Of a stretch of DNA of 51,120 bases, positions 471 through 45,800 are shown in pieces. A program made the position numbers and the translations under genes. Every line of letters begins with the position of its first letter. Positions within the stretch are counted from its first letter, which is position 1. The stretch is from Girardia tigrina. Lineage: Eukaryota. Location of the stretch: positions 4,283 through 55,402 of the forward strand of contig MQRK01237226.1 of the NCBI GenBank assembly GCA_001938485.1, read 5' to 3'. Below the pieces are notes generated by a model. It was not told the DNA's origin and did not search any database. It saw nothing but the letters and a program-made list of their open reading frames with translations.

Positions 471-517
471 TTTTGCCTGATGATGGCGGTTGATCCATTG
501 AAATTAATAGCAATAAA
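471..517 (+). ncRNA. Minimal type I hammerhead ribozyme (PLE pLTR type)
   Basis: TTTTGC-CTGATGA(477-483)-T-GGCGG ttgat CCATT-GAAA(500-503)-TTAA-TA^GCAA; stem I TTGC/GCAA; stem II weakened by G-U pairs and one mismatch. Confidence 0.7.
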
Positions 518-1759
518 TTTTGGTGAATATTTTTTTGTCTTTTAAAGACATCGTTTTTAAAATTTTTATATAATAAATATTAAATAGATATTTATTATTT
601 GTAACAATATATTGTCATTTTTCATCAAATTTATTTCTCGCTTTTTAATTAAGACTTTCCGAAATCATTCAAGTTATAATTATTGAAATCTCTACTGATA
701 ATATTAAATAGCGAAATAAATATATTTTAAATATAAATAATGTTTAAATTAAAACTTTTGAAATGGAATTAAAATTTCATATAATAAATTTTAACGATGA
801 AATAAACAGAAGAAATAAAAGTTTAACGACGTATTCTTATGATGTCGACGTTTCGTTCCCACCTGTAAATAGGAAAAGTTGCTCCCCAACTTCGCCTTAT
901 GTGATTCTCTCATGTCTGTTTAAGGGTGATTAACAATTCCCATTGTCCTGACAATGGGTTCCTGAATTCCTTTTAGAGAACCCCTTACACATTTGATTCA
1001 ATATACGCTTCTTTAAAGTATCTCTAAATAAATTTAAATATTTATAACTTTTGATTCAATTTTTTGGTTAATAAAAGTAAATATTAATTAAAATTAAATA
1101 TTTTTATTTAGTAATTTTTATTTTAAAACAAAATTTTTATTTTGTTTGATTCAGAACCTAATGTTATAAATGACATTAAAAGCAGGTCCCATATTAATGT
1201 GGTGCAGCAATAATTTAGCCGTTGCAATAATTACCTTGGTGTCACAGGTGTCAGTGGTGACCTTTGAAAATCAGAGGGAGTAGTTATTAATTTTATTTCA
1301 AGCCGTACCGATATCTGTAGCAGATTAGAAGGTGAGCAGCTTATAGTTTTAGAACAATCTAGTTATTGGAAGTCGGTAAATTAGATTTGTATTTTAAGTA
1401 AAAAAATTGACTCCTGCGGCTCTGCATGATGGGTTTAATCAAGAAGTTGATTGATTTGGAATTAGACTGATTTGATTGTATCTTGGCAACTAGAGTTTAA
1501 ATATAACGCTTTAATTTGGGAATTTTCGGATTGATGATAGTCACTGCGCAATTATCGGTCAACCTAGACTAACTTATTTCAGAGGCTAAATTATTTCCAT
1601 TACCCAAATAAAATGAATAATAGAAATTTGTGTTATTTAAAATTTCGAATTAACCTTGTAATTTAGATAAAAAAAATCAAAATTACAAATTAAAAAATGT
1701 AAAAAAAATAAAATTGTTTGAATGTTCGGGATTTTTATGAAATTTTTGAATTGTATATA

Positions 1760-2435
1760 AGAAAGGTCTCTGGGTTTTGGGTGCCGAGAATGTTAACCGA
1801 CGAGTAAAAGTAAAAACGTGCCTAAATTTCTAGATCAAATCTTGAAAAGTTCCCAGCAGATCATCAGAATTTTTTGTTTCGTTTTGTGACAATGGACGGG
1901 ACCTTCATCTTCCACTTTCATCTCGAAATTAAACAAAAATCGAAATGAGTCGACGAACCCACGTCGAAGAAATTCAAAGTGTCAAGATGAGCAGGGAAGA
2001 TGGCGTCCGATTTTTGGGACGCTGAAGGAATTATTATGGTAGACTATTTGAAAAAGGGAGCCACTATTACAGACTCCTACAACAAAGATAAAATATGAAG
2101 ATTGCTGATGGCTATCTTGGAGAAAAGGTGCAGTAAACTGTGACCTGGAGTGTTGTTTTACAAAGACAACGTGCCGGTTTACACAGCTACAGTTGCCGTG
2201 GCCACCATTCAAGAAGCGGACTTTGAACTAGTGCAATACTCTACCCTCTATTCGCAAGATCTAGCTCTCAGTAACTTCTTTCTCTCTCCTCGGTTCAAGA
2301 AACACCCCCGGTGCAAGAAATTTTACGATGATGGCGAGGTGATGACCGCTGTTAGGAATTATTTTAAGTGTCAAGATCACGAATTTGTTTCTAAGGAGAT
2401 TGCAACTTTAGAAAAGAGATTGACTGCATGTTTAG
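1760..2435 (+). mobile_element. Decayed mariner (DD34D) transposase
   Basis: Frames give WVPRMLT, FVTMD, FWDAEGIIMVDYL and YSQDLALSNFFL (WVPHEL/YSPDLAPSDF equivalents); stops and frameshifts. Confidence 0.85.
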
Positions 2436-2645
2436 TAACCTACTGTTTACTTTTTATTTATAATAAATTATATGTGTATATATGGATATATATCGCTATA
2501 TATAGATGTATATCGCTAACGGATTCCACTAATCGAAAATCCTGTTAAATAACAGAATTTTCGAGTATGTGTTGATTTTTGACAATTAAATAAAGTCACA
2601 ATCAGACCAGAACATTTCAAACGAATCGTACACATATTTCAAAAG

Positions 2646-3757
2646 TCGTGAGCAAAGATAACATAGAAACGAATAAAACGAAAATTGAAGCAATCGAAAA
2701 ATTTCAAAATCCTTCATACATTAAACATTTAAGAAGTTTTTTGGGGCTAACGAACTATTATAGAAAATTTTTGAAGGATTCAAAAATACTGGAAGGGCTG
2801 TGTGAAAAAAATAAAGATAAAAATTTGATATGGACAAACGAGTGGGACAAAGCATTTCAGTCATTAAAAGAAAAAATGACAAAAACACCGATCCTAGCAG
2901 ATCCAGATTTTGAAAATGAGTTTGTACTGGATACAGATATCCTTTTTGTTACGATCGGGCAGTACTTGCACAGAAGGATGTATACTGAAGGGAAAGAGTA
3001 ATTGCATATAGATTCCACAAGATGAACAAACACAAACTGGGATACTGTATTACAAGAAAGGAATTATTGACAATTTATTACTCCACCCAATATTTTAAAC
3101 TTTTCTTATACGGAAAGAGCTTCCTACTTCGAACGGACCATCAAGCCATCACATTCATGATGACAACGAAGAACCCAATAACTTCACAATTCCAAACTTC
3201 GATAAACTTCCTTAGTGGACTAGACATGAGGATGGAATACCGCAAGGGAGAAAAACACACCAATGCAGACGCAATGTCGAGAAATACACGTGAACTATGT
3301 GTACAATATCAGACAATGCTCGATGATGCTAAAAAAAGAAAAGTTAAAACTAGAATACTTGCATTAACTGAAGATTTAGAAGAGTTCATTTGGCAGACGA
3401 ATGATAAAGAAATAAAACAGATTAAAGAAAATATTAGAATGTGAAAGACAAAAGAATGACTTCTAAAAAACAATATCGTGTCGACAAGAGATAAAAAATA
3501 TTGGATCCCAGTGAAAAAGCGAACCGACTTTATAGAAGATATACATAAAATGTTATACCATGCGGGAAGTAAGAAAGTATACAATTACATAAAAGATGAT
3601 TTCGATATGTATGAAATAAGACAACAGATAAAGAAAATCATACAAAGTTGTGCAAACTACCAGAATAGGAAGACTCTGACAGCAAAGACGAAAGAGAAGC
3701 ACATTAAAAAATTCACCGACGAACCATTTCAAAAAATTTACATGGACTTTTGCGACC
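2646..3757 (+). mobile_element. Ty3/Gypsy pol fragment (RT C-terminus, RNase H, integrase HHCC), frameshifted
   Basis: LRSFLGLTNYYRKF, FVLDTD, KELL..F.LRTDH, H..L.H.G..C; same family as 37000-38130; cut off at MDFC by the PLE. Confidence 0.92.
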
Positions 3758-3759
3758 GG

Positions 3760-5060
3760 CAAAAGAGTTAGAAACCTCTAGCGTATAAACACTGGGTTTA
3801 TGATATTTTTTTTTATTTTACAAAATGAAAAAGATATTTCTCCCTTTTTAAATTATATGGATTCTTTGCATTCAAATGTAAAGTTGACTATGGAGATAGA
3901 GCAAGATAAGAAATTGTCCTTTCTTGGTTTGTTAATTGAGAGAAAAAACGAATGTTATGAGATGGAGATTTACAGAAAGAAAACTGACACGGGGTTGTAT
4001 ACAACAACGAATAGTTTCTGTGAATCCAAATATCGTCGAAATATTATTAAAGGTCTTATTTTTCGCTCATGGGATCTTTCATCTACATATAAAGGATTTA
4101 ATGACAGCCTTAATAAATTAAACAAATTATTATATGATAATGGATATTCAAAATCGATAGTGGAAAAATTAACAAAGGAAACTATTGATAAATTAATCGA
4201 CAAAAATAATACTAAAATTTTATATGTTCAAGATCAAGAGCAATTTTACAAATTTAATGATAAAAGTTTAGAAATTGGATATGTATTAGCTGTAACATAT
4301 TCAGACAGGTTTACAATATCTAAAAATTCTATTTTTAAAGCGTTAGATAATGCTATACGTTTAAAAGTAACATCCCGTACCCAAAAATTGAAAAAATGTT
4401 CGACAATAAATCTCCAGCGCCGTTAGGATTGTTTTCGGATCTCATTTACCAATATAGATGTAATGGGTGTAAGGCCACATACATTGGTGAGACTTTACGT
4501 TATCTCTGTAAGAGAATCCAGGAACACAGTCGCAATGAAGGTGGATATAACATTGCAGGAGATAGAAGACATCGTAAAGGAGATATAAATTCACAACACT
4601 TAAAATTCCAGTGCACTCAATTTAAAAATTATTGGGAGAGAGTGACATATGAAGCGTTATATATAAGATCTTTGGATCCTAAAATTAACGTTCAAAGTGC
4701 ATTCTCTACAACTTTGTTCGGAGTTTTTAAATTATATACTGATGACGTATTGATTACTTAATCATTAACTGCACTATATAAGTAAATTTCGCTTGAAAAA
4801 TAATTTTTTTCTGACGATTACTGTTAAACCGTTGAAATTAATTATTATTTTTAGTTAATGTTTTTAAAAATTAGAAAAAAATGTTCACATAATCGTGATA
4901 AAAAATAGAAATTAAAAAACCAATTAGAGCGATGTCCAACAGTCTTGTAATGACTCCAAATGTGATAATAATTAAAATACTAATGAAAATTGTCTCATTA
5001 TTCTTATCAGACATGATTACAATAAATTCAAATAGTAATAATTTGAAAATGACTTAATAT
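3760..5060 (+). mobile_element. 5'-truncated Penelope-like element: RT C-terminal half + GIY-YIG endonuclease + pLTR
   Basis: KPLAYKHWVYDIF (decayed YVDD), LTMEIEQDKKLSFL, IYRKKTDTG, NGYS; LIYQYRCNGCKATYIGET..RIQEH..EALYIRSLDPKIN; frameshift near 4390; hammerhead core downstream. Confidence 0.92.
4805..4845 (+). ncRNA. Degenerate hammerhead ribozyme core
   Basis: CTGACGA(4811-4817)..GAAA(4834-4837)TTAATT about 50 nt after the GIY-YIG stop; stems I and II poorly paired. Confidence 0.55.
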
Positions 5061-9249: not shown

Positions 9250-9848
9250 TAATCCAGGGAATTACTTTTTTTAACATGAACACAAACAAAAAGATAGATC
9301 AAAACAATAAGGATATATTGGATAAATTATGTACACAAACACTGGTTAGGAAAGAATTAAATAAAGAAAACATTACATAACACAATCCAATAATCAAAAT
9401 ATCATATTCTGCGGGATTTGAAACGTTTAAGAAATGTATTTGCAAGATAAGAAGTAGTGTTAAAGTTGCTTCAATGACATCCAACTTTCAAAGCTTCTTC
9501 GTGTAGTAATCGAAAACGATTTTTAGATTGCAAGCTAATCTGATGCATAAATTTGATTGTCACGGGTATCAAAACTCGTACATCGGAGAGATAAATCGTC
9601 ATCCCAAAACCCGGATTAGTGATCATTAACAATCAAATCGATCGAGAAAGGTTATTGATCATCGGTTACATTGTAAAAATAGAATCTCTTCAGTTTCAAA
9701 GGATGAGTTTACTGTTTTTCAGAAGGGCTTTGATTCATACTATGAGCGGCAGTTTTGTCAATTATTATTGATAAGACACTTCAACCCATAAATAAACATT
9801 CAAAATGGACAACGTAAAGCCGTTTCAAATCTTAAAATTTTTAATTAA
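9250..9848 (+). mobile_element. Penelope-like GIY-YIG fragment (second subfamily)
   Basis: Frame from 9540: LMHKFDCHGYQNSYIGEINRHPKTRISDH*..LLIRHFNP*INIQ. Confidence 0.8.
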
Positions 9849-11070
9849 AATTTTTAAAATTTTATCATTATTATCCAATAATATTTTTAATTTTATAAAA
9901 TAAATACGATTTTTGTTCACTTTTAAATAACATTATACAAAAGAAACATTAAAACAGTAACTTTATAATTGGTGATGATGGAGAATATTTCAAAAAATGT
10001 ACTGTAATCTATTTATTAAAAAAGCTTTAACAAAATTATTTTTTACAATATTAAATCAGTGTTCACAAGAGACAGTATTATATATATTTATATATCAATG
10101 TGTGCAAGTTTTATAAATAATAAAATATTTTATATAACTTATTTTTAATTATTACAATAATTAAAATTTATAATTTGTAATAATTATATGTTGTAAAAAC
10201 ACTAACGCGATTTTCAATACATTTATTGGCATCACAACTCGAATATCCTCCAGGACAATTCTCCATAAAACTTTCGCAGCTAGTTATCTCGATTGATAAA
10301 TTTTAATTTTATTTCTAAACCTCTATTTATTCAAACAAATTTAAATTACAATTCAATTTACAATTTCAATTACAAAATAATTTACAATTTAATAACAAAA
10401 TAATTTTAAATTATTTTAAAAAATATTTTAAATATATTATTTTTATGATATATTAATTTAAGTTAAAAGTTGTTACTTACAATTTTAATTTGTCCGAATA
10501 ATCCGACGATTTAAAGTATTTAAAATATCAATCTTCCATCTGAGTGGGAGAAACACTATCCTAAAACAACGTACAATAAGCACCATTCAAATATATTCCT
10601 CACAATATGTATTGACATTAATTTATCACCTGTAATATATTCTGTTTTTGTCAAAGTACAGAAACTATCAGTCTGAATTGTCTCTTTAATTTACAGAGAT
10701 TCTTCATCTTTTTACACGATAAAAAATAAAAAGAAAGAAACCTTGATATTTATAATTTAAGAAACACGAAGGATTTATTTGGCTATTTTTACTCTAAACC
10801 TAACAGACTGGGTACGCGACATTTGGCCGTAGAAAACTCGTCGCAAAAATTAATTTTAGGACATAATAATGGTTTTAGTTTAATTGTACAAATTTATGAT
10901 TATAATTTTAAAATCATTTTGATTATTTATCACATTTTATTTCTACTTTAAACATTAAATTTCATTTTTGTTTTAATTACATAAAATTTACTTTAATTTT
11001 ATTCATGATTAAACTTTAATTTTCATTTTTTATAATTATAAATTTTATTTTTTAATACTTAGAACACTTA

Positions 11071-11634
11071 CCGTGTTTCGCACAATATAAGACATCCCCT
11101 AGTCTTTAGTAATCCCCCAGCAAAATTTTATGAAGTTTTATTAGTTTTTCGATCAAAATAAACTGTTGAATTCGAATAATATCGGCGACACTAAAATTAT
11201 TAAAACAAATGTATTAATAATAACATAGATTTATACATAATTTTATAATATAATGACTTTTACTTAATTAATTTGCACTAAAAACTGTCATTTTTAACTC
11301 TAAACAAAAATCTTTAATTTTATTTTAAATTATGATATTCTATTTCTAATAAACCTTTTCTTAGAAAAAAATTAAATTAAAATTAAAAAAATAAAAATAA
11401 TATATAATTATATATTATAGTTAATCATTTGATTTAATAATATTAATTAAAATGTGAGTTTTTAATTTTTAATATAAATATTTTATAGGTGATATTTCCG
11501 CAACGATGAGAGATAAAAATATCCCACGAGAAGAAGAAATACATAAGAAAAGGTAATAAATCTATTTCTCATAAAATTTTGCTGGGGGGAGATTACTAAA
11601 GACTGGGGGATGTCTTATATTGAGCGAAACACGG
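11071..11634. mobile_element. MITE with ~63-bp TIRs (pogo/Tc2-like CCGT ends)
   Basis: TA-CCGTGTTTCGCACAATATAAGACATCCCC..AAAATTTTATGA (11071-11133) is inverted at 11569-11634. Confidence 0.9.
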
Positions 11635-12435
11635 TGAATATTTTAAATCTGCATTTAATTTCAATTCCAAATAATTTTTTTAAATTTAGATCAGCAAACT
11701 GAAGATTAACTTACTCCTCGTAACTTTAATTTTTTTCATGATTAAACATTAAAGTAGGTTACAATAAAAGCCTTAATTTAATTATCCTTAAAATTTTATT
11801 TTTACCATTGTGCTCAAACTTGATTTTTGATCTTTGTGAATTAGTTAATTAAAATTTTACTGCAATCATAAAATAATCCTTTAAAAATTATAAACAAAAT
11901 CCTGCGGCGAGTTGTCCTGCTCCGAGCAGACTATATTCGTATTAAAGCGACATCAATCCTCACCTCAATCATTTCATTCAGTAATAAAATTATAAAATTT
12001 GCCATATCAGTTACAGACTCAGTAGTAAAGTAACTTATTTATTTAATTATCTTCCTTAACAGTTTTATTGAATTATCCAATTAATTCTTCTTTTTATTTC
12101 GTCCGTTCATTGATGTTGACATTATTACATATCTGTTAACTCCTTTTATATTAATTAATTTATATTAGTTAATAAAAGCAATTAATTAAAAATTATAATC
12201 AATGATATAAGAGTATGATAATTCTTCTTAAAATATAAATTAAATTATAAAAATAAATAATTTCATTCTATTTAATTGCCTTTATTTTGAAGTAAAAATA
12301 TAATTTATTTAATTTTATATTTGAGTCCATTAATAGTTTTTATATTACTTTTTATTGGAAACATTCGTTTCAATTGTGGCTTTCATATTTCTCCGTAAAT
12401 ATAATTTATTTTTTTTCCTATATTTTTGCTGGGCT

Positions 12436-13400
12436 TTAGAGCGTTTTTCTAAATATTTTATTTTCATGGTTCAAGATTTTAAATTGAGTTTTTTGATCTG
12501 AGATAATTTTATCCAGTTCGATCGACCCAAAAAATAAATAAGAAATCATTATATTATTCACATTAAAATTTGTTAAAATGATATTTGTCAAAATATTAGT
12601 TTTACTTTTTAATAGAGTTTTCAAATAATTAAAATTTTTAAGAAAGTTGAGACAATTTTCATTTGAATTTTTATTATTATCCAATATATATTCGCCAAAA
12701 CTCTCAGAAGATTGTTTACTGTTTGATATCACTCAAATTGTTTTTTTAAATTTTTTTTTCTATTGTTAATCTTGATTATTCGAAAAAAAATTTCTAAATC
12801 TTTTTAATAATTTTAATTAAAATTAATAATTTTAACCATTTAATTCAAAAAACTCAAAATAATAAAAAGGTTATCATTTTGTTAAAAAATTAATTTAATT
12901 TAAATTTTATTAGTTTTATTCATATATAATTAAATGCTTTTCTTTTTTTAACAACTATTAAACTTGATTTTAATTCTTAAATTTAAAAATATAAAGTTAT
13001 CAAATTCTTATTTTAATTATGTTTGAATAATCAATTACTGAAAATACAAAAATAACAATTTCCATTTGGGTGGGAGAATTCTAACTTCAACATACTCGAA
13101 TCAAAAAACATCATTAATACATTTATACAATTTAAAATATTCATCACAAAAAGTGGCATTTTATTTTGAAATAAAGAAAGACTTTATTTAAAGAAAATTT
13201 TGTATTTTTATGCACAATTAATTTTGGTGGTAGTTATACCACATGCCATAAAGAAAATATAAATTTAAAATCAGCTGTTATTGGTAAGCAGTGATTGTGC
13301 AATAAATGAATGTGTTTTCTAAATATACTCAATAAGATTTTCGAGAGACCCGTTTGTACATTAATTTTAAAATCTAAAGATATGACACATAGTGATTCAC
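12436..13400 (-). mobile_element. PLE 5' region: upstream pLTR (GIY-YIG tail), leader, and ORF N-terminus
   Basis: ESLCVISLDFKINVQ matches the GIY-YIG C-terminus; decayed hammerhead near 13210-13250; exact 16-mer AATGAAAATTGTCTCA shared with 4982-4997 downstream of the PLE hammerhead. Confidence 0.65.
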
Positions 13401-13404
13401 AGAG

Positions 13405-13565
13405 TAAAGTGCAAACAGGTCTATGGAAAACCCTATTGAGTGTGTTTAGATGACACAATTACTCGATGATTACACAATCACTGCTTGCTAATTTGTACAA
13501 ATTTAAAATCCATATCTTCCTTATCACTTGAAGGTGACGGTAATACCGTCGAAATTAATTGTCAA
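13405..13565 (+). repeat. Inverted copy of PLE pLTR with decayed hammerhead (13525-13563)
   Basis: Homologous to the reverse complement of 13210-13360; TTGAAGG-T-GACGG taata CCGTC-GAAA-TTAA-TT-GTC. Confidence 0.7.
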
Positions 13566-20493: not shown

Positions 20494-20644
20494 TTTGAAT
20501 TTACAAAAACAAAATTCGAAAATTCGATAATCTTTATTTTACCACATTAAACAAATTTTTTTTATTTTTTTCGTAAAACTTTTGGTAATTGTGAATCATC
20601 ACAAAAAAATCTATTTTTTAAACACGCACACACATTTTTCCCCA

Positions 20645-30547: not shown

Positions 30548-30765
30548 TTATCATGGCAAAATAGGATCGTGCAATAGGGAAATATGAAGTCTTACAGTGA
30601 AAACTCGTTTGATTAAGTAAAGAAATCGCGTTGAAAATCCATTTTCATTACGTCAAATTTTGACAATAATTTTGATATAATCTAAATTGTACTTTACTAA
30701 TTAAATTTAAAAAACAAGAAATGTGTTGCGTATACGATTCAGAGGAATATTGATGAATTTATTGA
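30548..30765 (-). repeat. Right arm of ~220-bp inverted repeat
   Basis: See 27785-28003. Confidence 0.9.
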
Positions 30766-30859
30766 AACAAATTTTACTGAGACTTGTGAACGCTAATTTA
30801 ATATTTTTGAAAAATAATTTTGTTAAAAATTTTTTAAGAAATTGAATATTGTACATATT

Positions 30860-31350
30860 TGGGAAATTTGTTTTGCATCGTCATCAATTATATTTTGTTA
30901 GTTACTTATTTTTAATGTTATTTTTTAGATAGTTAGTTTTAAAGATAAAAATTTATTTATTTATTATTTAATTTAAGATATATATTGGATAATATAAACT
31001 AAATGTTTTAAAAATTTTTATTAAACATTATAAGATTTGGAATCGGCTTTACTTTGTCAATTTTGAATGTTTATTAACCCATTAACGCCGAACGGGAACA
31101 TTCGTGCCCATCTAATAAAAATGGCTGTAAAAGTAAAGACATTGCATTTAGCTATGTTTCGTTGATAAGGTGTGTACTCTGAAGGTTCATAACACATACG
31201 GAACATATTTTGTTTCTCTGTCACCAGGCATGCATGCGCAGTAGCCGGCTGACCTTGACCAAGAAAGGAGTGTATGTAACATGTAAATGCATATTACATA
31301 ATTCTCGGCATTAATGGGTTAATGTGTTGTAGTGTCTTATTAATAATTTC
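30860..31350 (-). mobile_element. PLE 3' end (same subfamily as 9760-10000), split by a MITE
   Basis: Reverse complement matches ATAAGACAC..AATAAACATTCAAAAT.GACAA.GTAAAGCCG.TT.CAAATCTT on both sides of the MITE. Confidence 0.7.
31078..31318. mobile_element. piggyBac-type MITE
   Basis: TTAA TSDs (31074-31077, 31319-31322); TIRs CCCATTAA(C/T)GCCGA. Confidence 0.9.
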
Positions 31351-33449: not shown

Positions 33450-34599
33450 TTAATATTCGTTTTATTTGTATTTACATGTTCTAATGTCCATGATCAATGT
33501 TGACAAGTCCCGAATTTTCAAATTTTAATAAAATACAATCATAAAAGTAAATTTTTAGTAAATGAGATATTATTATATGTATTAATATTTATTCTTTATT
33601 TATAATGGTTTGTATTAAAAGAAAGTAACTAGGTTTCTCGAAATATTTGTTAAAAAATCGTAATTTTTATACTAATAAAATTTTCGTGCTATGAGTTTAA
33701 CTTTTGAATTCGAACCTAAAAGTCTGTATCTGCCATTGTGTAGTGTGAGTGTCTTTTATGATTTATACAGAAGCTTGTTTTTTCTTTTTTTGATTATTTT
33801 GATTCGTTCTAAAGATTTCCCATCAAGGTCTGAGCTCTTGTTAAAAAATACTGTTTTGATTTTTGTTTACCTTGTTCTGCGTTTTTCAATCAATCAAAAA
33901 CGCAAGAACTGACTTACCAACTCAATATTATGAATAGAATGTACAATAAACTCATTTTATATTATAAACCCTTTGGATTAAGAAAAAAAACATTTATAAT
34001 ATATGCAAAGTCTGGATACTTTAAATATATTAAAATTAATATTTAGATGGAGTCCAAACGTAGCAGTCCTAAAGTTTTAGTCCGTCCCATTTTAGCTGGT
34101 ACTTAGTTTGTATAAAAAAAGAAACCAAATGGTCATCGACGAAAATGCATTTTTTCAGCTGAAAATTGAATTGTCTTATTATATAAATTGTAAAAATTAA
34201 GCGCAAGTGACATTGGAGTTTGAAAATTAAATATGATAAGCACAATAAATGCTGAAAAGCAATATAGAAAATTATTCCAAAATTTTCAACAGAATTGCTA
34301 ATAGCGAATATTTATAAGATGAAATAATGGTTCTCCACCTTATTTCTGGAAGGACTCTTAAGCATAAAATATTAATCCCGGGACATTTCATCTTAAATTA
34401 CTATTCTTATCATATTTAATTCTGTGCGGCACTTCACTCAATTAAGTTGTGGTGCTACATGCTTTATTAATACTAAATTCTCATTCTTCTTTCATCTAAA
34501 TTAATGTTCTCAAATGTTCTCATTTATTAAAATTAATATTTTCACTTCTCTACTATTATTAAAAGATAATTCATAAAAATACAATACAATAAATTCAAA

Positions 34600-35090
34600 A
34601 ATAACTTCCCGTACCCAAAAAAATCGAAAGTGAGTTTAGTAATAAATCTTCAACTTCGTTAGGATTGTTTCGGATCTCATTTACCAATATCCATGTAATG
34701 AGTGTAATGCCACATACATTCGATAGATTTCACGTCATCTCTGTAAGATAATCCAGGAGCACAGTCGTAAGGAAAGTGGAAGAAACATTGCTGGACATAG
34801 TAAACTTTATAAAGGGACATAAACATCCATAACTCTAAATTTCTGTGCACTCAATTTAAGAATTCAATTTAAGGAAAGGAATGACATGTGAAGCGTTATA
34901 TATAAGATTTTTAGATTCTAAAATTAATATTCAAATTAATATTCAACGACCTTATTGTGGTTTTAAAATGATTTATTGATGACGTGTTTATTGCATAATC
35001 ATAAGCAGTATATATGTACAGTTTTTTTAAAAAGATCAATTGTTCTGAAGATGACGGTTAATCCATCGAAATTAATAAACAATTTCAATT
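34600..35090 (+). mobile_element. PLE GIY-YIG/pLTR fragment
   Basis: Clear nucleotide match to 4368-4850. Confidence 0.88.
35038..35084 (+). ncRNA. Minimal type I hammerhead ribozyme
   Basis: AATTGTT-CTGAAGA-T-GACGG ttaat CCATC-GAAA-TTAA-TA^AACAATT; perfect 7-bp stem I; predicted cleavage after A35077. Confidence 0.85.
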
Positions 35091-36249
35091 GGATTTTGAA
35101 TTTTAATATATTATTCAATGAATTTCATTTAAATTTCTAAAATCTCACAGAGACCAATATTGACTATATAAAGTTAATATTATTTCAAAAATTATTTTAA
35201 AAAATAATATAAAATATTAATAATAATTTTAAAAATATTTTAAACTATGGGATACAGTCTTTCATAATTTAATAACATAATTTATATCAGTAAAATTATA
35301 TTCATTTTATTTAAAATCTAAATATATCGCTATTTTATTTATTTATTAATAAAGAACAAGCAAAAAATAAAAACCGCTTTATTTAAGTCCTTCCATCATC
35401 AAAATATGGTGTGAAAATATAAATGATTAATTTAATCTTCTTTACCCATAAGAATTAAACAGTAAAACATCTAATGCCACAATGTAATTAAATTTTCTTA
35501 GTTTCGGTATTCTTTGGGGAACGAAGAATTTTCTAATTTTCACTATGTATTCAAATTAAAGAAAATAAATAAAAAAACATTAGAAAAAATTGTATTTTTA
35601 TTAAATTCTAATTTGCCCACATTCCTTCAGGTTAGACGTAATTGTATTTTTGTTGCTTTAAATACGATAAAATAATTTTAATTGTATTTTTTAATAAAAT
35701 TGATATTTATATAATATTATTGAAAAAGCAAAGTATGAGTTAATTACTCTTCTCAGTTAAAATAAATAATCTACTCATTGTGGTAATTGAAAAAAATAAA
35801 TTGTAATTTATTAATGAATTTTTGATGAAAGGCGAGATAAATTTATAAGAAGACGTAATTAGAATAAGAAATATTCTGCTTCCATTAAACGTGATGGAAA
35901 ATTATAATATATTATTTATTTTTTATTTTAAATGGTTTTATTTCTATTTAACGCGGGTTAAACTAACATTTAGCGTTTTTTTCTGAATTCGTTCTTCTTA
36001 AATTATTGAAAATATATTAAATTACTGCAAGGTCTCGTTTGATGTGGTGAATTCGTTCTACAGAAAATACTTTGAAAAGACTTTACTTGCCTTAAAAAGT
36101 AGGGATACGTTCCAGACTTTTCTAAAATCGCATAAAACCATAACAAAGCGTTAAAATTAACTGAAAACTTCTTGAAAAATTTGGAGAAATTAACAAAAAT
36201 AGGCTGCGTAATTAGTTACTTCGAATGTCTGAAAGAAATTCATATATAA

Positions 36250-37388
36250 ACTCATAACTTCTTTCATGTCTTCTGCTTTTTACTGTGGCTGGACCCATAT
36301 ATCGATCTTCTTTCTTTGTAGCATTATCTTTTTTTATCAACACTTTATCCCCCGTATAAAATATTCGTCCTGTCTCTATCGTATTTTCGCTCTTTTCTTT
36401 CTTATTACAACTCTGTTTCATAGTATCTTTCCACCAATGTTTTAGCTTCCTACCAAATATCATTTCTGCTGGTGAGATTCCTGTGGTATCTTGAATTGTG
36501 CTGTTCATCATAAATTCTACTTCTGGCAAAATTTTCGTCCAATCTTTGTGGGCTTGATTTTTTATCCTTATGTTCATTGCATCTCTAGTTCTAAATTGTC
36601 TTTCAATGATGCCATTGATATTGTGATGATAAGGACTGGAATAAATTATTTCTGCTTTAAAACTCTTCAGTGTGTCTTTGAAGAGTGTAGATTCGAATGC
36701 TTTACCTCTATCCACATGGATCTCTTTTGGTGGTCCGAATTTCCAAATCCATCTGTCCAGTAGTGTTAGGATTTCGAAAAATACATATGAACACTTTTGA
36801 TAAAATTTTATGTAGAAAAAATTTTAAAATAATTCTTTTAGTAAAATTATAATTAATCCATCTATCCAGTAGTACTTTCCGAGCAGTTTTCTCATCTTGA
36901 TGAATTACAGCATTTAGACTTATATACCTGCTAAATTGATCAATTATAGCTAATATATATTGATATCCATTTAAAGTCTTTTTAAATGGTCCGCAAAAAT
37001 CCATATACATCTTTTGAAATGGTTCATCGGCAAATTGTTTAATAAAACTTTCTTTCGTTTTTGTGGTTAAAGTCTTTCTTTTTTGACAGTTTATGCAACA
37101 TTTTACAATTTCCTTAATTATCTCTCTCGTATTAACCATATCAAAGTCATCTTTCAAATAGTTATAAACCTTTTTACTACCAGTATGGCATAGAATCTTG
37201 TGAGCGTCTTCCACGAATTCTGTCCTTGTGGTTCTCGGAATCCAATATTTATTATCTATTGTTGTCACAATATTGTCTTTCAGTATCCATTTCTTTGTTC
37301 TTCCCATTCTAATATCTTCTCTGATCTGATTTATTTCGTCATTATCTTTCTGCCATTTGAACTCTTTAGATTCTTCGTCTAAAGCCAA
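36250..37388 (-). pseudogene. Gypsy integrase
   Basis: AHKILCHTG..CINC, MDFCGP, IIDQFSRY, DRGKAF, SPYHHNINGIIER, YMGPA. Confidence 0.92.
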
Positions 37389-38861
37389 GATTGCGTTTTA
37401 ATTTTTTCTTTCTTAGCTTCTTCGTGCATGGTTTGACACTGACTACATAATTCACAAGAATTTCTCGACATTGCATCTGCATTTGAGTGTTTTCCTCCTT
37501 TTCGATATTCCATTCTCATATCCAGACTACTAAGAAAATTTTTCCACGTTTGAAATTGCGGTGTTATTGGGTTTTTCATATTCAGCATGAATGTAATAGC
37601 TTTATGATCGGTTCTTAGTAAAAATCTTTTACCGTATAAGAAGTGTTTAAAATTATGCATAAAATAATAAATTGCCAGCAACTCTTTTCTTGTAATACAA
37701 TATCCAAGCTCATTTTTGTTCATTTTATGTGATCCATACGCGATCACTCTCTCTCTACCATACGTGTCCTTCTGTGATAATACTGCCCCGATTGTATCGA
37801 AGCTTGCATCTGTATCCAGTATAAACTCCTTCTCAAAATCAGGATACGCCAGAATCGGGGTGTCGATCATTTTTTCTTTCAATTTTTGAAAAGCTTCCTC
37901 GCATTCTTCACTCCATATTATTTATTCTTGTCTTTATTCTTACCACACAAACTCTGCAATACATTTGAGTATTTTACGTAATCTTTTAAACATTTTCTGT
38001 AGTAATTTGTTAGACCCAAGAAACTTCTCAAATGTTTGATACATGATGGTTTCTGAAATTTTTTAATGGCTTCAATCTTTGTTTGATCAGTTTCTATACC
38101 ATTCTTACTGACAATGTATCTTAAAAATTTTGTTCTTTCTGTTAGAAATTGGCATATTTCTGGGTTAATTCTTAAACCTGCTTCCTTAATTTTTTTCCAT
38201 ATATATGTTTTATTCGTTGCATTTGCTCTTCTTTATTTTTTGCAAAAACCAAAATATCGTCCAAATATACTACTGCCTCTTTCCAGTTTAAATCTCCTAG
38301 GACTTTGACAATTAGCTCTTGGAAAGTTGCTGGGGCTGCTGCTATCCCGAACGGCATTCTTTTGAAACAATACTGTCCGTTCTTTGTTGCGAATGCTGTT
38401 TTAATCTTTGATTCTTCTTCCAACTCGACTTGGTAGTACGCGTTTCCCAGATCACTTTTATTAAAATATTGCACACCATTCAGTGTGTTCAGCATGTCAT
38501 CTACATTTGGCGTAGGGAACGCTGGCCTGACGGTAATTCTATTTAACTGGCGGAAGTCTACACACACTCGAATATCTTGTTTTTCCTTCTTCCACACACA
38601 TACTAAAGGGAAATTCCATGGTGAGCTACACTTTTCGATTATGTCATTTTCTTCGAAAATTTTAATAACATCATCCAATTTGTCCTCAAAGTGTTTTGGT
38701 TGCCGATAAGGTGTTACTTGTATTGGATTTCCATGTGTTTCTATTCTGTGTTTTGTCAATGATTTTTTCCCAATATCCCACTTATCAGTCATGAATACTG
38801 ATTTATAATTGTTTAGAATCTTCCTTAATTGCCCGTCAATTTGCTTGTTAAATATATCCAT
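37379..38861 (-). pseudogene. Gypsy reverse transcriptase / RNase H
   Basis: SPWNFP, RVCVDFRQLN, RMPFGI, YLDD; ILDTDAS, KELLA, RTDH, NADAMSR. Confidence 0.95.
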
Positions 38862-38885
38862 TATTCTTCTTAGTCTGTCTTCATC

Positions 38886-39281
38886 TTATGGGTTGTCTCT
38901 AAACACCAATTTTTCTCTACCTCGAGGTATCTGTCTTTCCGGTTTTATTCCGAATTTATCGTAAAAATCTGCACCTGCGATCATTTCGGTGTCTAGTTCT
39001 TTGACCGCATAAAACTCTATTAACTTTTGTGTTCCCTCAATAACCACATTTAATTGAACGATTACATAATTGATCAGTTCTGAATCATTTGCACAATGGA
39101 TACGTTTTTTCGTTTCTCTTATTTTAATTTCTTTCATGTGTTTGATTATCTCCGCTTTATTTACATTCACTCTTGCTCCAGTGTCCAAAAGGCAATGAAC
39201 TTTCCTATCTTTCACATAAAAATCCACTCTTGGATATCCTTTCAATTCTTTATAATTTATCTTAAACTTTGATATCTTCAA
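38886..39281 (-). pseudogene. Gypsy aspartic protease
   Basis: LLDTGA and IAGADF motifs. Confidence 0.9.
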
Positions 39282-39739
39282 TATTTCCGTTTTACCATTT
39301 AGTTTTTGTCATCTAGAGTTGTCATACTATTACACAGCTCTCGATTTACAATATCTTGACATCCAAGTTCGCACATCTCTTGAGAAATATTTTCATATGT
39401 AAAATCAAACACACAATCACACACTCATTCATACATACAATCAAACATACATTTACATTGGTTTTCTAATGAAGCACACTGATCACCTCTCCTTGTTATC
39501 GTGCGTCCTCGTTTCCCTGTTCGTCTCCAGATTTTCTTTTACCTCTAGAATAATCTCTTGCTGTATTCTCTTCTCTTCTATCAGACATTTCCGATCTTCT
39601 GTTCATTTCATCATCCCTGTCGTCTAACTCCGGCAAGTGTTGTTTCTTATTCATATTCATATTCTCTATATCTGTGATTAGAATAATCTCTCTTGTCATT
39701 CCAACGATTTCTATTATTGTCCCATTTCCGTTGGTTACG

Positions 39740-40507
39740 TTCTTTAAACCTATTTTGGTTTTCATAACATTGTGTTCATAGGTGTCCTCTTCTTTGACAG
39801 TGGCTACACTTAACGTTTGGACATTCTCTTCTAACATGACCTTCCTCATGGCATGCCCAACAAATTATTTTTCTGACTTTATAATTTCGACTTCTACCGT
39901 CTCTCTTTACTTCATCGTTCCGTGGTTTTGGCGTTCTTCTTTTATTCTCCACAGTTTTCCAATCGTTTTCTTTTCTTGTGTTATATGCTGCAATTGGTGA
40001 ATTTCTTTTCTTTTTCCCGTAATCATACATCCTCATTTGTATGTTTTCGATCTCCTCTGCCGTTGTTACACCTCGAATCGCTATCTCTTGATCAACGTTA
40101 TCATCGTCAATCATATTAGCATAGACCAAGTTTGATAGTTCTTTCTAACCAAACTTTTTCTCCGCTAATTTTTTGATTATCTCATCTGCTTTGCGGAACG
40201 CAAGTGACTGGTCACCACAACCTACTCTTAACTCTATGAGATCTTTCATCAAATCCAAAGTAGATTTCTCTTTTGAAAATGCTGCTCGCATTTTCTCTTC
40301 GTAAGTACTCCCTGGGGCCTTGTCGTATCTCAGAATCGCATCTAGAGTCAAGTAGGGTGTTACGAGTAGGATTTTTCTCTCCTCTGATAATCCCATAATC
40401 TTTGAATACCTGTTAAAACTTATCAGGAATTCTTCTAATTAGTGCTTCGATCCATCGAATGTTTCTGAACCTTTGATGTTCGGAGTCACGTGGTGTGAAG
40501 TCGCCAT
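39740..40507 (-). pseudogene. Gypsy gag with zinc knuckles
   Basis: ETFDG..LEEF N-terminus; CWACHEEGHVRREC and CSHCQRRGH; in-frame stops. Confidence 0.88.
40494..40506 (-). promoter_or_regulatory. Primer-binding site
   Basis: TGGCGACTTC directly after the LTR end ..TTAACA; cognate tRNA not determinable here. Confidence 0.75.
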
Positions 40508-40994
40508 GTTAAGAGAACTCACACATTTGACAGAACATTTATTACATTCACATTTCTTATCATCTTTATGATGATCAATAGTATTGCTTTTACTTAAGTC
40601 CATCATTCAATTTTCAATATCTCTCATTATAATCTGAACTATGCTTGAGGAGATTATTTTATTTAAAAATATTTAATTTATATTTTATTGGCTAAGATAA
40701 AATATTTTTATAGTCATTTTTAAACATTAATTTGATTTTAATTATTTAAACATTTACAAATATAAAATCAATAAAATTATTTAAAAGTTGCAATAATAAA
40801 AATTAAAAATTTGAATATTAAATCTAAATTTAAATAAATTAGTTTCAGATTGTGAGAATTAAAATATTGATCATACATCTGATTAGGAGAGGCACAATCC
40901 CAAATCAACGCACAACATTTAAACATGCAAACAATACAAAAACAATTACACACCCCATATTCCTCACACACACATATGTATATATATATTGACA
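40507..40994 (-). repeat. 5' LTR (homologous to the PLE leader)
   Basis: Ends TTAACA before the PBS with AATAAA ~30 nt upstream; possible start TGTCAA at 40994; copies at 20645 and 28519. Confidence 0.7.
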
Positions 40995-41006: not shown

Positions 41007-41045
41007 GACAATTAATTTCGACGGTATAACCGTCATCGTCAGGTC
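41007..41045 (-). ncRNA. Minimal type I hammerhead ribozyme
   Basis: GAC-CTGACGA-T-GACGG ttata CCGTC-GAAA-TTAA-TT^GTC; intact core, perfect stem II, stem I GAC/GTC. Confidence 0.85.
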
Positions 41046-41089
41046 TCAAGAAAAAAAGAGTTTTAAATCTGCTTATATAGGTCAAACAG

Positions 41090-41725
41090 TTTTTGTGAAT
41101 CTCGATACAAATATAATATTATTAGAGGATTAATTTAAGAATCTTGGTCATTATCATCAACTTATTGAAAAATTTGTGATATCATTAAACAATTAACCAA
41201 ATTATTGAATAAAAATGGTTATTCAAAATCTATTGTTGAGAAACTGACTAAAAAAACAATTTATAAATTAGTTAATAAACCGATTAAAAATTATAAAGAA
41301 GAATCAACAACTTTAAAATACATTTTAAGCATTCCGTAATCCGAAATATTTGGTCCATTAAAACATTCAATTTTAAAATACGCAAATAATTTTAAATAAA
41401 TTTAAAAATAATATCACAAATATATATAAAATTGAAAATGTATTTTATAATAAATCTTCGACCCCATTTGTATTATGTTCGTACTTCATATATAAATTTA
41501 CATGTAATTGGTGTAATACATCATACATTGTACAGACGTCCCGTCATCTCTGTAAGAGAATCCAAGAACATGGTCGAAAATTTAGGTGTGAATAATATTG
41601 CAAAACACAGAAAGGGTTGTAATTCTAACGAAAATATAAACATAAATGATTGAAATATTCTGTGTACTCGTTTTACAAACTATTGGGAGAGGGCGGCCTG
41701 TGAATCACTTTATATCAGATCAAAT
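41090..41725 (+). mobile_element. PLE RT-tail/GIY-YIG remnant
   Basis: Matches 4035-4670 (NGYSKSIVEKLTK, CKRIQEH, NYWER..ESLYIRS). Confidence 0.85.
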
Positions 41726-42546: not shown

Positions 42547-43990
42547 TGTTAATAAAACTTACACAATTCCACAGATGTAGTTTTCAATTTTCATATTATA
42601 TTCTTTCAGTTTGAACTTAGGTTCAGAAGAGAAACGAAAGTTCTGAAACAGCAAAATTAACTCATTAATCCTTCACTCAAATTTCAAGTTATATAAAAAG
42701 GATCCATTAAAATATTTATAAGAGAAAGAAAAATGGAAAAATTTTATGATGATTTACTTTTCAGTTGAAATTTTAATTTCTTATTTAATTAAAATCACAA
42801 AAACATGTGGTTTTAAGTTTACTTTCGTTACTTACAATTTTCTTACTTTAAATAAGAACGGTTTATGTTATATCAAGAACTCTTGGGTTTTCTTTTTCTC
42901 ACATCATGTGGAGATTGGATTTTTACCTGACGATCTTGTATGGGCCTTCATATTGGAAATCATTCTTGTTCCTTTTGTTAGGATCTACCATGATCAGTAC
43001 CATATCCCCCTCCTTGAAATATCTTTCACCTGGGATCCAATTTTGATATTTTTTCAGTTTCTCCGCTGTCATTCTGGAATTAATCCAGCCTTCTGCAATA
43101 ATCTCATCTCTTGTTTTAGTATGGCAACCAACTGCGGAATGGATGTTCACTTTCCGTTCTAAAAAAATTTCAAAAGGCGAAAAGTTTGTTGAATCTTGTT
43201 TGGTGGCATTTAAGCTCAATTCTATTCGTAACAATAATTCATATCAATTTTTTCTATACACTTCCCTTTTAGTGAAGTGACAATCATGTCTCTCACTGTT
43301 CGAATCGCCCGTTCTACCAAACCGTTTAATTGGTGTTGGTAGGGCACGCTAAAGTCTTGTTTGATTTGCAACTGACCCAAACTTCTACTCATGAATGTGT
43401 TCTGAAATTGTCTACCCCTGTCCGTCTGGATATTTTACGGCTTTCCAAACTTGTAAATCTAATTGTGCAGAATGCAATTAAATATGGTATGCTCATCCTG
43501 TTTGGAAAATGCATTTAAATTTACCAATTTACAGAATCTAACTATAATTACCACAATATATCTTTTTTTGGATGCAACTTTATCCATCTGTGCGATGTCT
43601 ACTACAATTTGATCCTGGAAATTGTTTCTAATCCGTGGTAATAAAGTTTCTTTCGTTCTTGTTTGACCAATTCACCTTTTCACACATACGATACATTCAT
43701 TAATACACTGCCGTATAGTTTTGTACAATGATTGCCAGTAGAAATTATCCTGCATGTATTTAGATATCTTTTTAATTCCAAGATGAAATAGATCGACATG
43801 TATATTTTTAATAAATTCACATACATATTCTTCACGAACGATCGTCAACAGATTGTTGTTTATCTCGACCATTAAGAGTCCATTTGATACTGCTAGCTGT
43901 TTTATCAATTTGTACAGCTAGCTTCTCTTAAAACACTTGAAAAACTTTCATTATAATCTGTCAATGCATCAATCGCTTGTTTTATAACTA
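42547..43990 (-). mobile_element. Gypsy integrase 3' part with putative 3' LTR (42547-42836)
   Basis: IHVDLFHLG..ECIVC, FSPFEI, YEGPYKI; purine-rich tract then TGTAAG...TTAACA. Confidence 0.85.
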
Positions 43991-43994
43991 AATT

Positions 43995-44400
43995 AGAATG
44001 CTTCTTTTCTTCGATCGTCTTGATTACATCATCGTCTTCTGTAGGGAATTCGAAATGTCGCCGCTGCTGTGGAAAAAACGTAACAATTTTCTTGTAAAAA
44101 CAATGCCAAATTTACCAATTCCGATTTTATATTGGTCATCATTGTTGCACGGAAAATTCGTTGATTTAATAATTCGTTGTTTTTAAAAATTTTCGTTATG
44201 CTCACTCAATATGTTCTCATATCAAAACCGCTCTATGAATGATGATGAAAGATAATTTGAATCTGATGATGATTACATTCATTGTTGCATCCGCCGAGAT
44301 GATACTCATGATGATCTGTGTGAAAATCTTGACGTTTTAGAATTATTCGTCGACCGAATATTCAAGCAAATTTCTTTTTGGTAAATGTACCTCGATTTAA
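43995..44400 (-). pseudogene. Possible protein-kinase fragment
   Basis: YKIGIGKFGIVF (GxGxFGxV) at ~44096-44134, then VIKT after a frameshift; upstream frame has stops. Confidence 0.35.
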
Positions 44401-45589
44401 TGAGTTATAATGGAATTTGATTTAAACTCTGATTTTTCTTTATGGAAATTTTTTCTCCGAGAAAATTTTCTATTTTCTATCAGTATTTTTTATGTGAATT
44501 TGAAAAAAATAGAATTCACAAATTCTTAGCAAAAAAATTCCATTGAAAATTCTGTTTAATGTTTTAAAAAATGAGGCAGTAAAATTTTTTATCCATTTAT
44601 TGACGAATTTACGAAAATTTTTATAATATGGAAATCAACGATATATAAAAAGAAAACGATAACTAATTGTACAATTAACAAAACAATTCAAAATCCATAG
44701 ATGCAGTATATCAATTTCCAGAAGTATTAACAGATTAAATTTTTCGTTGGTTTTGACAAAGATTCATTTCTTCTCAATATTCCAAATTATTTATAGTTTA
44801 ACAACGACCAACAAGTAAATTCTAGTTTAATTGTTTCTCTATCGGTCCAATAATTTTGTTTATAACTTACAGAAACTAGGATAATACTTAACCACATATA
44901 ACTGATAAATTACATCCAGCTGATTGTCAAATCTAAATTTACAAATTCCTATATTATATTCTTCAATCAACTCTATACGACTCGTTCTTATCATTCAACA
45001 AAAAAAATCACCATTTCATTCTGAGAATTTTCTTCTGATCGATTCTCGCGAGTATTATTAAAAATTATTTCGTGATACTGACAATTTTCGTTACCTAACA
45101 AGATTTCACGTTACATATATTCGTCTTATTGTATAAACTTATTACATTAAATTTCGTTATTATTAATATATCGCTATAATTGAGATATTTTTATTATCAA
45201 TATTTATTATTGGAGGTATTATAACTATCAAATATCCACAGTATATCTTTCGAAATCACTAGTGGTATTTTACATATTTTGTTTGAAACAAGAACCCTAA
45301 TTAACTCATTTTACTTACTATAGTTTAAAATACGAACCACTGAGAGTGTATTGTATTTCGAACTATATATATTAGTGACTATAAGTCACTAAAATACTTA
45401 AACAAAGCTTTAACCATTTTGAAAGTTCATGACTCGATAACATGTTATTAAAACTAATAAAAAACACATCAATATTAGATGATTAAAAATTGTTTCGTGA
45501 ATTTATATTTACTTGATTTAAATAAATGACACCCTCCTTTAAACGACGTTCACAAATAGCGCAAATTTTATTAAACACAATACACAATG

Positions 45590-45800
45590 CAATGTTAAAT
45601 ATTTTAAAAGAAACATTGTTTATAAGATCATATGATCCTAAAATCGATACAAACTCGACACTTTCAACCAATTTGTGAAGATTTTTTGATTATTTTGCCT
45701 TCAGAGATTATACAATAATTTATTTCTCATAAATCAATAGTTAAAAGCACATTTATCAGTTATCTGATGAAGGCAAAACCATCAAAATATATTTTAAAAT
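45590..45800 (+). mobile_element. Old PLE 3' end with decayed hammerhead
   Basis: ETLFIRSYDPKID resembles EALYIRSLDPKIN; CTGATGA at 45764 but GAAA is lost. Confidence 0.45.

Follow-up and report, generated by a model that had tools for sequence, protein, structure and literature searches.

Minimal type I hammerheads are known from the pLTRs of metazoan Penelope-like elements (PLEs), where self-cleavage was low for a dimer and absent for a monomer (PMC4209133). By our hand count over the 56 rows of Fig. S3 of that paper, helix III is all-AU in 12 motifs, six of which have the hexamer AUAUAU; all six are from Drosophila, and one duplicates D. virilis. The cleavage triplet is AUU in five rows and AUA in two, and position 17 is U in 24. 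According to a review (PMC3138052), cleavage at AUA can lag orders of magnitude behind that at GUC. The hammerhead of PAc, the Poseidon element of Anolis carolinensis, cleaves once its protein is added, so that help from the protein may take the place of RNA dimers (PMC11167929). In the same study the element inserted in vitro without needing cleavage, and the cut site was not the end of any RNA-seq read.

The window examined here, ie the whole 51,120-nt stretch of DNA that was analysed, has a G+C content of 28% and holds seven hammerhead sites. These sites are very probably pLTR relics from a single, high-copy group of Penelope-like retrotransposons with an endonuclease, likely of the Penelope/Poseidon type, and each site carries a minimal type I hammerhead. 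All the copies are truncated and decaying, and none lies in a complete element.

A 33-nt hammerhead pattern detected five copies in the window with 0-3 mismatches each, and none of 100 shuffles gave any match. Even when 9 of 32 positions were allowed to mismatch, the number of chance matches expected was zero. C3 was found where the preliminary description had placed it, at 477, 4811, 13528 and 35045 (+) and 41042 (-), all within three mismatches of the pattern; the spacings between copies are 4334, 8717 and 21517 nt. The core written in that description is matched exactly only by 41042(-), the other four departing from it at one to three positions. The order CUGANGA...GAAA...UH of a type I core is present in four of the five full copies, the exception being 13528 (U3, G9). 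All five carry an additional U between positions 9 and 10.1. The G10.1-C11.1 pair is G-C in three copies, G-U in 477 and lost in 4811, and H17 is A in 477 and 35045 and U in 4811, 13528 and 41042. Only 477, 35045 and 41042 passed a minimal hammerhead descriptor (0.02 expected per window). The same three keep both the core and helix I; 4811 and 13528 are damaged. Intactness had been overstated: three of the seven copies could form the fold, and at most three may still cut.

The copy at 473..513 (+) is a solo pLTR fragment with an intact core, a 4-bp helix I and an AUA triplet (H17 = 509). Its helix II is weak, with two G-U pairs and one mismatch, which are its three departures from the written core. 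No match to PLE protein was found upstream of it. The possibility that the 4811 element has its 5' pLTR here was rejected, as positions 510 to 3772, queried with the 743-aa ORF of the relative L086 and with P0001 and P0002, gave no PLE coding match. The copy at 4811..4843 (+) keeps the core boxes and has lost helix I and, among its three departures, G10.1-C11.1. At 13524..13564 (+), helix II is perfect and helix I has a C-C mismatch; its two departures, U for C3 and G for A9, both affect the catalytic box, and this copy is probably inactive. The hammerhead at 35038..35084 (+) has an intact core, a 7-bp helix I and an AUA triplet, with the cut predicted after A35077; its one departure is a C-A mismatch in helix II. 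The best preserved copy, 41007..41045 (-), lies within an inverted pLTR and has a perfect core and helix II, a 3-bp helix I and an AUU triplet (H17 = 41010).

Two further sites are decayed. At 13212..13252 (-) the CUGANGA box is absent; there is another, perfect 6-bp helix II, and AUUAAU plus U is kept. At 45764..45795 (+), which is heavily decayed, CUGAUGA is kept and helix II and GAAA are lost; together with the flank downstream, it resembles the L086 pLTR (blastn, 80% over 41 nt, E 4e-5). Both had been put forward as decayed versions, near 13230(-) and 45764, and they are homologous by position only, behind an endonuclease end. A covariance model of the five copies scores neither of them at E up to 2.

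Most copies had been said to adjoin GIY-YIG ends. This was borne out by tblastn for four of the seven (4811, 35045, 13230 and 45764) and by the translated upstream frame for 13528. Five sites therefore lie just downstream of a GIY-YIG C-terminus on the same strand, one is in an inverted pLTR and one is solo. Upstream of 4811 is a 5'-truncated, frameshifted PLE ORF at 3772..4761 (+), comprising the end of the reverse transcriptase (RT), the thumb and, at the C-terminus, a GIY-YIG endonuclease (tblastn with P0001 and P0002, 50-62% identity, E 3e-87; Pfam GIY-YIG, E 5e-5). A frameshifted GIY-YIG remnant was found by tblastn at 34594..34934 (+), in an element that shares 77% of its sequence with that of 4811 along about 440 nt, and an endonuclease C-terminal remnant lies at 45562..45714 (+) (tblastn E 3e-4 to 8e-3). 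Two pLTRs form an inverted, head-to-head pair, its arms 69% alike over 283 nt (13248-13524), with a C-terminal remnant on each arm. That of the minus arm, at 13321..13407 (-), was detected by tblastn (E 8e-4). That of the plus arm, at 13394..13453 (+), overlaps the minus arm by about 15 nt; on inspection its translation looks like the P0001 end, with no tblastn match. The 41042 pLTR is head-to-head with a 5'-truncated RT-thumb and endonuclease remnant at 41082..41722 (+) (tblastn E 1e-40), whose own 3' pLTR was not found.

The endonuclease has a CxxC inside GIY-YIG (a CCHH finger), which in the window ORF and its relatives takes the form of CNGC preceding YIG. Both His of this finger are invariant in seven relatives, and the second is out of register in the decayed window copy. 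The CX2-5CxxC linker finger, a feature of Neptune and Nematis (PMC8557442), is absent from six of six relatives and, by eye, from the window ORFs. The elements are probably of the Penelope/Poseidon type of EN+ PLEs, an assignment made by motifs and not by a tree. A homologue search with an Nckap1-like fragment found nothing among longer proteins, an NCBIfam search gave nothing useful, and a PDB search gave weak retron RT matches only.

The same arrangement recurs in relatives, which are single ORFs with RT and, at the C-terminus, a GIY-YIG carrying the CxxC and two conserved His. Their PLE loci yielded 15 hammerheads in 15 of 35 loci (0.15 expected). Thirteen are downstream of the endonuclease on the same strand, and two are inverted upstream, like 41042. 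A covariance model built from the window copies alone finds L086 at E 4.5e-7 and seven more at E < 0.01. L086 is the closest relative, its helix II region being 93% identical over 28 nt to copy 41042. The preliminary description had assigned the motif to the minimal hammerheads that PMC4209133 reports from PLE pLTRs, in which helix III is palindromic; this is supported.

In two DNA sequencing runs, which may be the window's own source, 1,596 and 1,387 contigs align, with cover peaking on the core. A G at 35065, which restores helix II of that copy, accounts for 826,078 of 971,095 and 510,046 of 575,398 depth units, summed depth not being taken as a copy number. Helix II is fully paired in most aligned contigs, and N7 is variable while neighbouring positions are not listed as variable. 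Loop II is almost as invariant as the core, so that selection, a recent common origin and bias in the alignment cannot be told apart from the contig table. Run X4, of unknown kind, gave three contigs on the core, and X9, only guessed to be RNA, one contig off the core; neither bears on expression.

The three helix I pairings given in the preliminary description (TTGC/GCAA, AATTGTT/AACAATT and GAC/GTC) are correct, with 4, 7 and 3 bp. Helix I is thus paired in three of five copies with three different sequences; a C-C mismatch breaks it in 13528, and it is lost in 4811. Over the five sequences 80% of cells are paired, equalled in 18 of 500 shuffles, and eight cells are changed on both sides, a number as high in 4 of 500. 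The covariation score was reached in 25 of 500 shuffles and the number of further pair types in 222 of 500. Covariation on five sequences is modest, and the structure was drawn from those very sequences. The 15 metagenome motifs were left out of this count because the descriptor had selected them for pairing.

How such a hammerhead would work can be outlined from published work. In a live tandem element, an RNA would run from one pLTR to the next. Helix III, with 2 bp and a 2-nt loop, would be unable to close, and therefore two hammerheads would pair via AUUAAU, or the element's own protein would assist. The paired or protein-assisted hammerheads would then cut slowly after AUA or AUU. On folding the three intact copies, the hammerhead was not the minimum-energy structure, either alone or co-folded. 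The computed duplex energy is -0.2 kcal/mol for AUUAAU and -0.8 kcal/mol for AUAUAU.

So weak a duplex, together with the non-optimal triplets, would also fit a motif retained as a structural or protein-binding element of pLTR RNA or of promoter-proximal DNA, in a lineage where cleavage is a by-product or has been lost. The anole element's insertion in vitro without a need for cleavage (PMC11167929) and the spread of Naiad PLEs without hammerheads (PMC8557442) point the same way. However, the catalytic boxes and the NUH triplet are kept in relatives with wholly different helices, the anole hammerhead does cleave when given its protein (PMC11167929), and published PLE hammerheads have equally weak palindromes. 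We regard this explanation as possible, though doubtful.

The palindrome AUUAAU is found in all five full copies and in 13230(-), ie in six of the seven sites. The all-AU helix III with AUA or AUU triplets had been singled out as a notable variant, which is not supported; such helices and triplets are already present in Fig. S3 of PMC4209133, and the 15 hammerheads from relatives include two with an all-AU helix III, one with AUA and one with AUU. AU-rich helix III being in a published alignment, the finding is real yet ordinary. The hexamer AUUAAU itself is in none of the 56 rows of that figure and in none of the 15 motifs from relatives. Its DNA form occurs seven times in the supplementary text of PMC8557442, at least two of them in coding sequence. 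Searching the literature for 'AUUAAU' with 'hammerhead' gave nothing on PLEs by title and start of abstract. Lunse et al. (RNA Biol) reportedly described PLE hammerhead variants that cleave as dimers, and their alignments may contain AUUAAU. The constancy of the hexamer across differing helices I and II, and its absence from the published rows and from the relatives, might suggest that AUUAAU with AUA or AUU is a mechanistically distinct variant, for example a deliberately weak dimer switch. Yet AUUAAU is a permutation of the Drosophila AUAUAU with a similar duplex energy, L086 has AUAU and AUA with an almost identical helix II, and palindromes switch freely between families, with seven kinds among the 15 motifs of relatives. 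A distinct variant is very unlikely.

It is highly improbable that these sites belong to non-LTR retrozymes, which are short hammerhead-bearing repeats in tandem. Type I hammerheads in many copies would fit, and retrozymes are reported to be pLTR-derived (bioRxiv 10.64898/2026.07.22.740005), but retrozymes are tandem repeats of 150-450 bp without coding remnants, whereas these copies are dispersed kilobases apart and six of the seven adjoin PLE coding remnants. An AT-rich repeat resembling a hammerhead by chance, for which the low G+C content and the failure of Rfam covariance models to match the window at E up to 1 could be cited, is refuted by the near-zero chance expectation, by the recurrence of the motif at this position in relatives that are distant, and by a pattern scan of viral contigs, in which 85 loci gave no PLE protein match and none of the 84 parsed matches had both helices of at least 3 bp.

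The interpretation of the sites as pLTR relics can be extended to the start of the RNA. TATA-like boxes of putative function lie 36 nt before C3 at 4775..4781 and 35009..35015 (+), and another lies 37 nt before C3 at 41073..41079 (-), at the inversion junction, sharing sequence with the opening codons of the RT remnant on the plus strand. Of 21 motifs, 10 have a TATAWA that starts 32-42 nt before C3 (0.44 expected), and so do four of the eight families not used to set that distance (0.37 expected from local shuffles). Transcription would therefore start at helix I, the box setting the RNA start near its first base. An initiator-like TYAKT just before helix I was not enriched (4 of 21 vs 2.07 expected). 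In 10 of the 21 the first ATG follows the cut by 6-16 nt, an uncontrolled count. On a possible, though doubtful, reading, a TATA box at fixed distance would start the RNA at helix I in many Penelope/Poseidon-like lineages, so that the hammerhead would be the whole capped leader. A slow dimer- or protein-gated cut would remove the cap and about 40 nt, leaving an RNA with a 5'-OH and, a few bases on, the start codon, and would act as a switch between capped message and decapped RNA. The decapped RNA would be a template, or would be translated without a cap. If the box is real it marks the start of PLE transcripts, a short fragment with a cap and a cyclic phosphate end is to be expected, and the purpose of PLE hammerheads becomes testable by 5' end mapping.

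The window adds one genome and one palindrome to a motif reported in thousands of animal copies, most of its own copies being dead. With the metazoan PLE hammerheads of PMC4209133 it shares the type I topology, CUGANGA plus one additional base, G10.1-C11.1, the palindromic helix III, a short helix I and U or A at position 17. Also shared are the occurrence mostly as single copies of truncated elements, opposite-strand pairs 100-700 nt apart, and a truncated element with an inverted copy at its 5' end (Fig. S4A legend). It differs in AUUAAU, missing from the 56 rows, and its element and host are apparently absent from Table S1. The Penelope hammerheads of D. virilis, rhopaloa, elegans, ficusphila and kikkawai (PMC4209133, Fig. 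S3) likewise have a six-base all-AU palindromic helix III, with an AUU triplet in three and a helix I of 2-3 bp, but theirs is AUAUAU and their helix II is bulged. The D. virilis promoter, unlike that proposed here, has no TATA box, and helix I is where an intron ends (PMC2377424). The hammerheads of the Schmidtea mediterranea PLE (PMC4209133, Fig. S3) and of L086 match in the all-AU helix III, AUA, 5-bp helix II and 5-nt loop; their helix III, AUAU, is two bases shorter. PAc has the same RT, C-terminal GIY-YIG and hammerhead at the pLTR-ORF junction, but its start codon is in stem II, upstream of the cut (PMC11167929), whereas here the first ATG, where present, is downstream. In the available part of PMC3846280, the TATA box of Adineta vaga Pen2a is not related to any hammerhead; the Pen2a pLTR nevertheless resembles those described here in having a TATA box with an initiator-like sequence, the first ORF codons inside the pLTR, and an inverted pLTR that overlaps the direct one by 15 bp.

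The minimal hammerhead core that the preliminary description placed at 477, 4811, 13528 and 35045 (plus strand) and 41042 (minus strand; sites are named by the position of C3) is present at all five positions in the window, which is 28% G+C and contains 1,574 N. The 33-nt pattern as written is matched exactly only at 41042, with one mismatch at 35045, two at 13528 and three each at 477 and 4811, and is therefore a consensus. It was matched nowhere in 100 dinucleotide shuffles of the window, and a gap-free scan using the 41042 core recovered the same five copies and no others at up to 12 mismatches in 32. In the 13528 copy the catalytic box carries U3 and G9 and helix I is interrupted by a C-C mismatch; at 4811 both helix I and the G10.1-C11.1 pair are gone; 477 has a weak helix II and 35045 a single C-A mismatch. 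A minimal-hammerhead (min-HHR) descriptor requiring helix II, a palindromic helix III and a helix I of at least 3 bp was passed by 477, 35045 and 41042 only (0.02 expected per window). An Rfam search of the window gave zero matches. The motif is real and correctly assigned, its intactness and novelty having been overstated. Changes of CG to TG or CA make up four of the nine departures from the pattern (477-509, 4811-4843, 35045-35077), and 477 and 35045 have one of them in common.

The decayed versions proposed at 13230 (-) and 45764 (+) are real by position, but a covariance model trained on the five copies left them unscored; its seven matches in the window at E ≤ 2 were the five training copies and two at E > 1. 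At 13230 the CUGANGA box is missing, and a different, perfect 6-bp hairpin is followed by AUUAAU and U as in the other copies.

Stem I was said to vary and still pair. In the five-sequence alignment two-sided changes occur in six of the seven helix I pairs; 80% of helix I cells are paired (equally high in 18 of 500 shuffles) and eight cells carry a two-sided change (4/500). The covariation score was reached in 25/500 shuffles and the further pair types in 222/500, and slid structures on the same alignment were 27-59% paired. With so few sequences, related to one another and themselves the source of the structure, the covariation is supportive, not decisive.

The all-AU helix III with AUA and AUU triplets, put forward as the notable variant, is already in print in Fig. 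S3 of Cervera and De la Pena 2014 (PMC4209133). The accessible part of that paper gives an extra base after position 9, G10.1-C11.1 and the palindrome as min-HHR traits, and also states single dispersed copies and opposite-strand pairs. By a hand count over the PDF text, where the GAAA column stands apart, 12 of the 56 rows of Fig. S3 have only A and U in helix III, which reads AUAUAU in six of these; five rows have the triplet AUU and two AUA, 24 have U at position 17, and none has AUUAAU. The self-duplex energy of AUUAAU (-0.2 kcal/mol) lies between those of AUAU (+1.6) and AUAUAU (-0.8). A full-text search for AUUAAU with hammerhead returned nothing on PLEs (Penelope-like retroelements), judged by its listing; it may occur in Lunse et al., the main paper on such variants, or in the hammerhead supplement of PMC8557442.

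With the PLE proteins P0001 and P0002, single ORFs of RT plus endonuclease, as queries, PLE remnants were located at 3772-4731, 9375-9833, 13321-13407 (-), 34508-34934, 41085-41722 and 45562-45687. These proteins are the closest relatives of the RT-thumb piece in the window (55% and 49% identical, respectively). Most copies do adjoin GIY-YIG ends, as first described: 4811, 35045, 13230 (-) and 45764 lie behind an endonuclease end on the same strand, and by eye the frame upstream of 13528 resembles the same endonuclease C-terminus. The 13230 (-) and 13528 (+) sites are arranged head to head as an inverted pair with 69% likeness across 283 nt. The 41042 (-) copy lies in an inverted pLTR (PLE terminal repeat) that directly adjoins a plus-strand ORF remnant at the remnant's truncated 5' end, and 477 is a solo copy. 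Inverted 5' copies are a PLE trait described in the accessible parts of PMC8557442, PMC3846280 and PMC4209133 (text and Fig. S4 legend). At both inversion junctions, 41069-41082 and 13394-13407, the arms overlap by about 13-15 nt, and at the former plus-strand RT codons coincide with a minus-strand TATA-like box. A CxxC precedes YIG in the endonuclease and the CX2-5CxxC linker was not found in six of six relatives, a combination which, by the accessible part of PMC8557442, points to Penelope/Poseidon, on motifs rather than a tree. A further PLE lineage, more remote in sequence (31-34% identical to P0001/P0002), lies at 9294-10090 (+) and approximately 30760-31075 (-). Its 3' flank is present twice, each time with a decayed hammerhead-like stub (near 9973 (+) and 30883 (-)) scored by neither the descriptor nor the covariance model.

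Terminal inverted repeats mark short elements at 11059-11646 (60 nt, 88%) and, around an assembly gap, 23612-24896 (38 nt, 92%), and a dispersed repeat lies at 20635-20944, 28518-28602 and 40506-40815, two copies being 93% alike over 300 nt. Broken LTR-retrotransposon pol/gag pieces, which from their motifs we take to be Ty3/gypsy, occur at 2594-3771 (+), 36212-40144 (-) and 42923-43243 (-), with an RVT_1 match at 38175-38885; the first two are 70-76% alike. The minus strand holds a DDE_1 transposase remnant, a non-LTR-type RT fragment and two further fragments (16118-17029, 27162-27506, 2144-2548, 49523-49834), the two further fragments being putatively mariner-type transposase. Host genes are represented by formin FH2 (21569-21892 (-), E 2e-22) and an Nckap1-like piece (47387-47983 (+), E 7e-12); no relative of the latter was found among longer proteins, which could mean that the host lineage evolves fast.

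Scanning metagenome contigs with a protein alignment gave 35 PLE loci, 15 of which carry a hammerhead by the descriptor, one each, against 0.15 expected. Thirteen are downstream of the endonuclease on its strand and two are inverted upstream. Their palindromes are ACGU (five), ACAUGU (four), AUAU (two) and ACGCGU, ACUAGU, AGCU and AACGUU (one each), and position 17 is U in 11, A in three and C in one. A model of the window copies only made 18 matches on these loci at E ≤ 1, eight of them at E < 0.01, all E-values being rough; the best is locus L086 (E 4.5e-7), whose helix II is almost that of 41042, though with AUAU as its palindrome and AUA as its triplet.

Four of 11 listed sequencing runs were aligned to 34985-35115 at 80% likeness. 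Two DNA runs, X1 and X2, contain the stretch and are possibly the window's own source; 1,596 and 1,387 of their contigs align, some short AT-rich alignments perhaps by chance. Cover peaks on the core and drops by about half at helix I, which fits a high-copy family with a common core and several helix I versions, and is not a copy count. Most of the depth at 35065 is G (85% in X1, 89% in X2). This base completes helix II, and the C-A mismatch of the window is thus a minority state. N7 is variable (C 25%, U 6% in X1), and no other catalytic-box or helix III position was listed as variable at 3% or more. Loop II is almost as invariant as the core in the same contig table, which counts against a reading of selection.

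According to the accessible part of PMC4209133, single min-HHRs did not cleave and dimers and trimers cleaved weakly. The anole PLE hammerhead cleaved only in the presence of the element's protein, the element inserted in vitro without need for cleavage, and among RNA-seq reads none had its end at the cleavage site (PMC11167929, accessible part). The window shows the anatomy and placement of the motif; the ancestral tandem element probably gave an RNA with two hammerheads, which would pair via AUUAAU, or fold with protein help, and be cut slowly after AUA or AUU. The active form is not what folding predictions prefer for any of the three intact copies, whether monomeric or co-folded. All seven sites are probably relics, as none lies within a pLTR-ORF-pLTR unit.

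The sole point worth following up is the spacing of a TATA-like box, first noted 33-37 nt before C3 in 4811, 35045, 41042 and L086. With an interval of 32-42 nt, fixed after those four, the box is found in 10 of 21 motifs (15 relatives and six window copies; 13230, having no C3, was omitted), against 0.44 expected. When the relatives were collapsed by eye into families, with L086 excluded and shuffles of the local 80 nt as the null, four of eight families had it, against 0.37 expected; in a fifth the box stands at 46-50 nt, and the other three lack it. TATA-to-start spacing is usually about 30 nt, which would place the transcription start at helix I or immediately upstream of it. The first ATG is 6-16 nt after the predicted cut in 10 of 21, a count with no control, and no locus links a pLTR to an ORF start. 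An initiator-like word is not enriched among the 21 motifs. At 477 and 45764, and in the majority sequence of the 35045 family, C3 is preceded at 4-6 nt by an AG (468-472, 35036-35041, 45756-45761), a candidate initiator or 3' splice site, cf. D. virilis Penelope. One family without the box, with hammerheads at 87 (-) in L108, 3400 (+) in L113, 1614 (-) in L114, 2162 (+) in L119 and 3409 (+) in L120, has an initiator-like TCAGTT, its A 41 nt before C3, in five of five loci, like a TATA-less Penelope promoter.

In the accessible literature on Penelope or pLTR TATA boxes with hammerheads or transcription starts, most subscription papers being outside its scope, no link between them was found. 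In some RNA viruses type I hammerheads immediately upstream of start codons promote translation (PMC13725137, accessible part). Among known elements, by the accessible parts of the reports, D. virilis Penelope is TATA-less (PMC2377424), and the Adineta Pen2a pLTR includes the first 12 codons together with a TATA box and an initiator-like sequence (PMC3846280).
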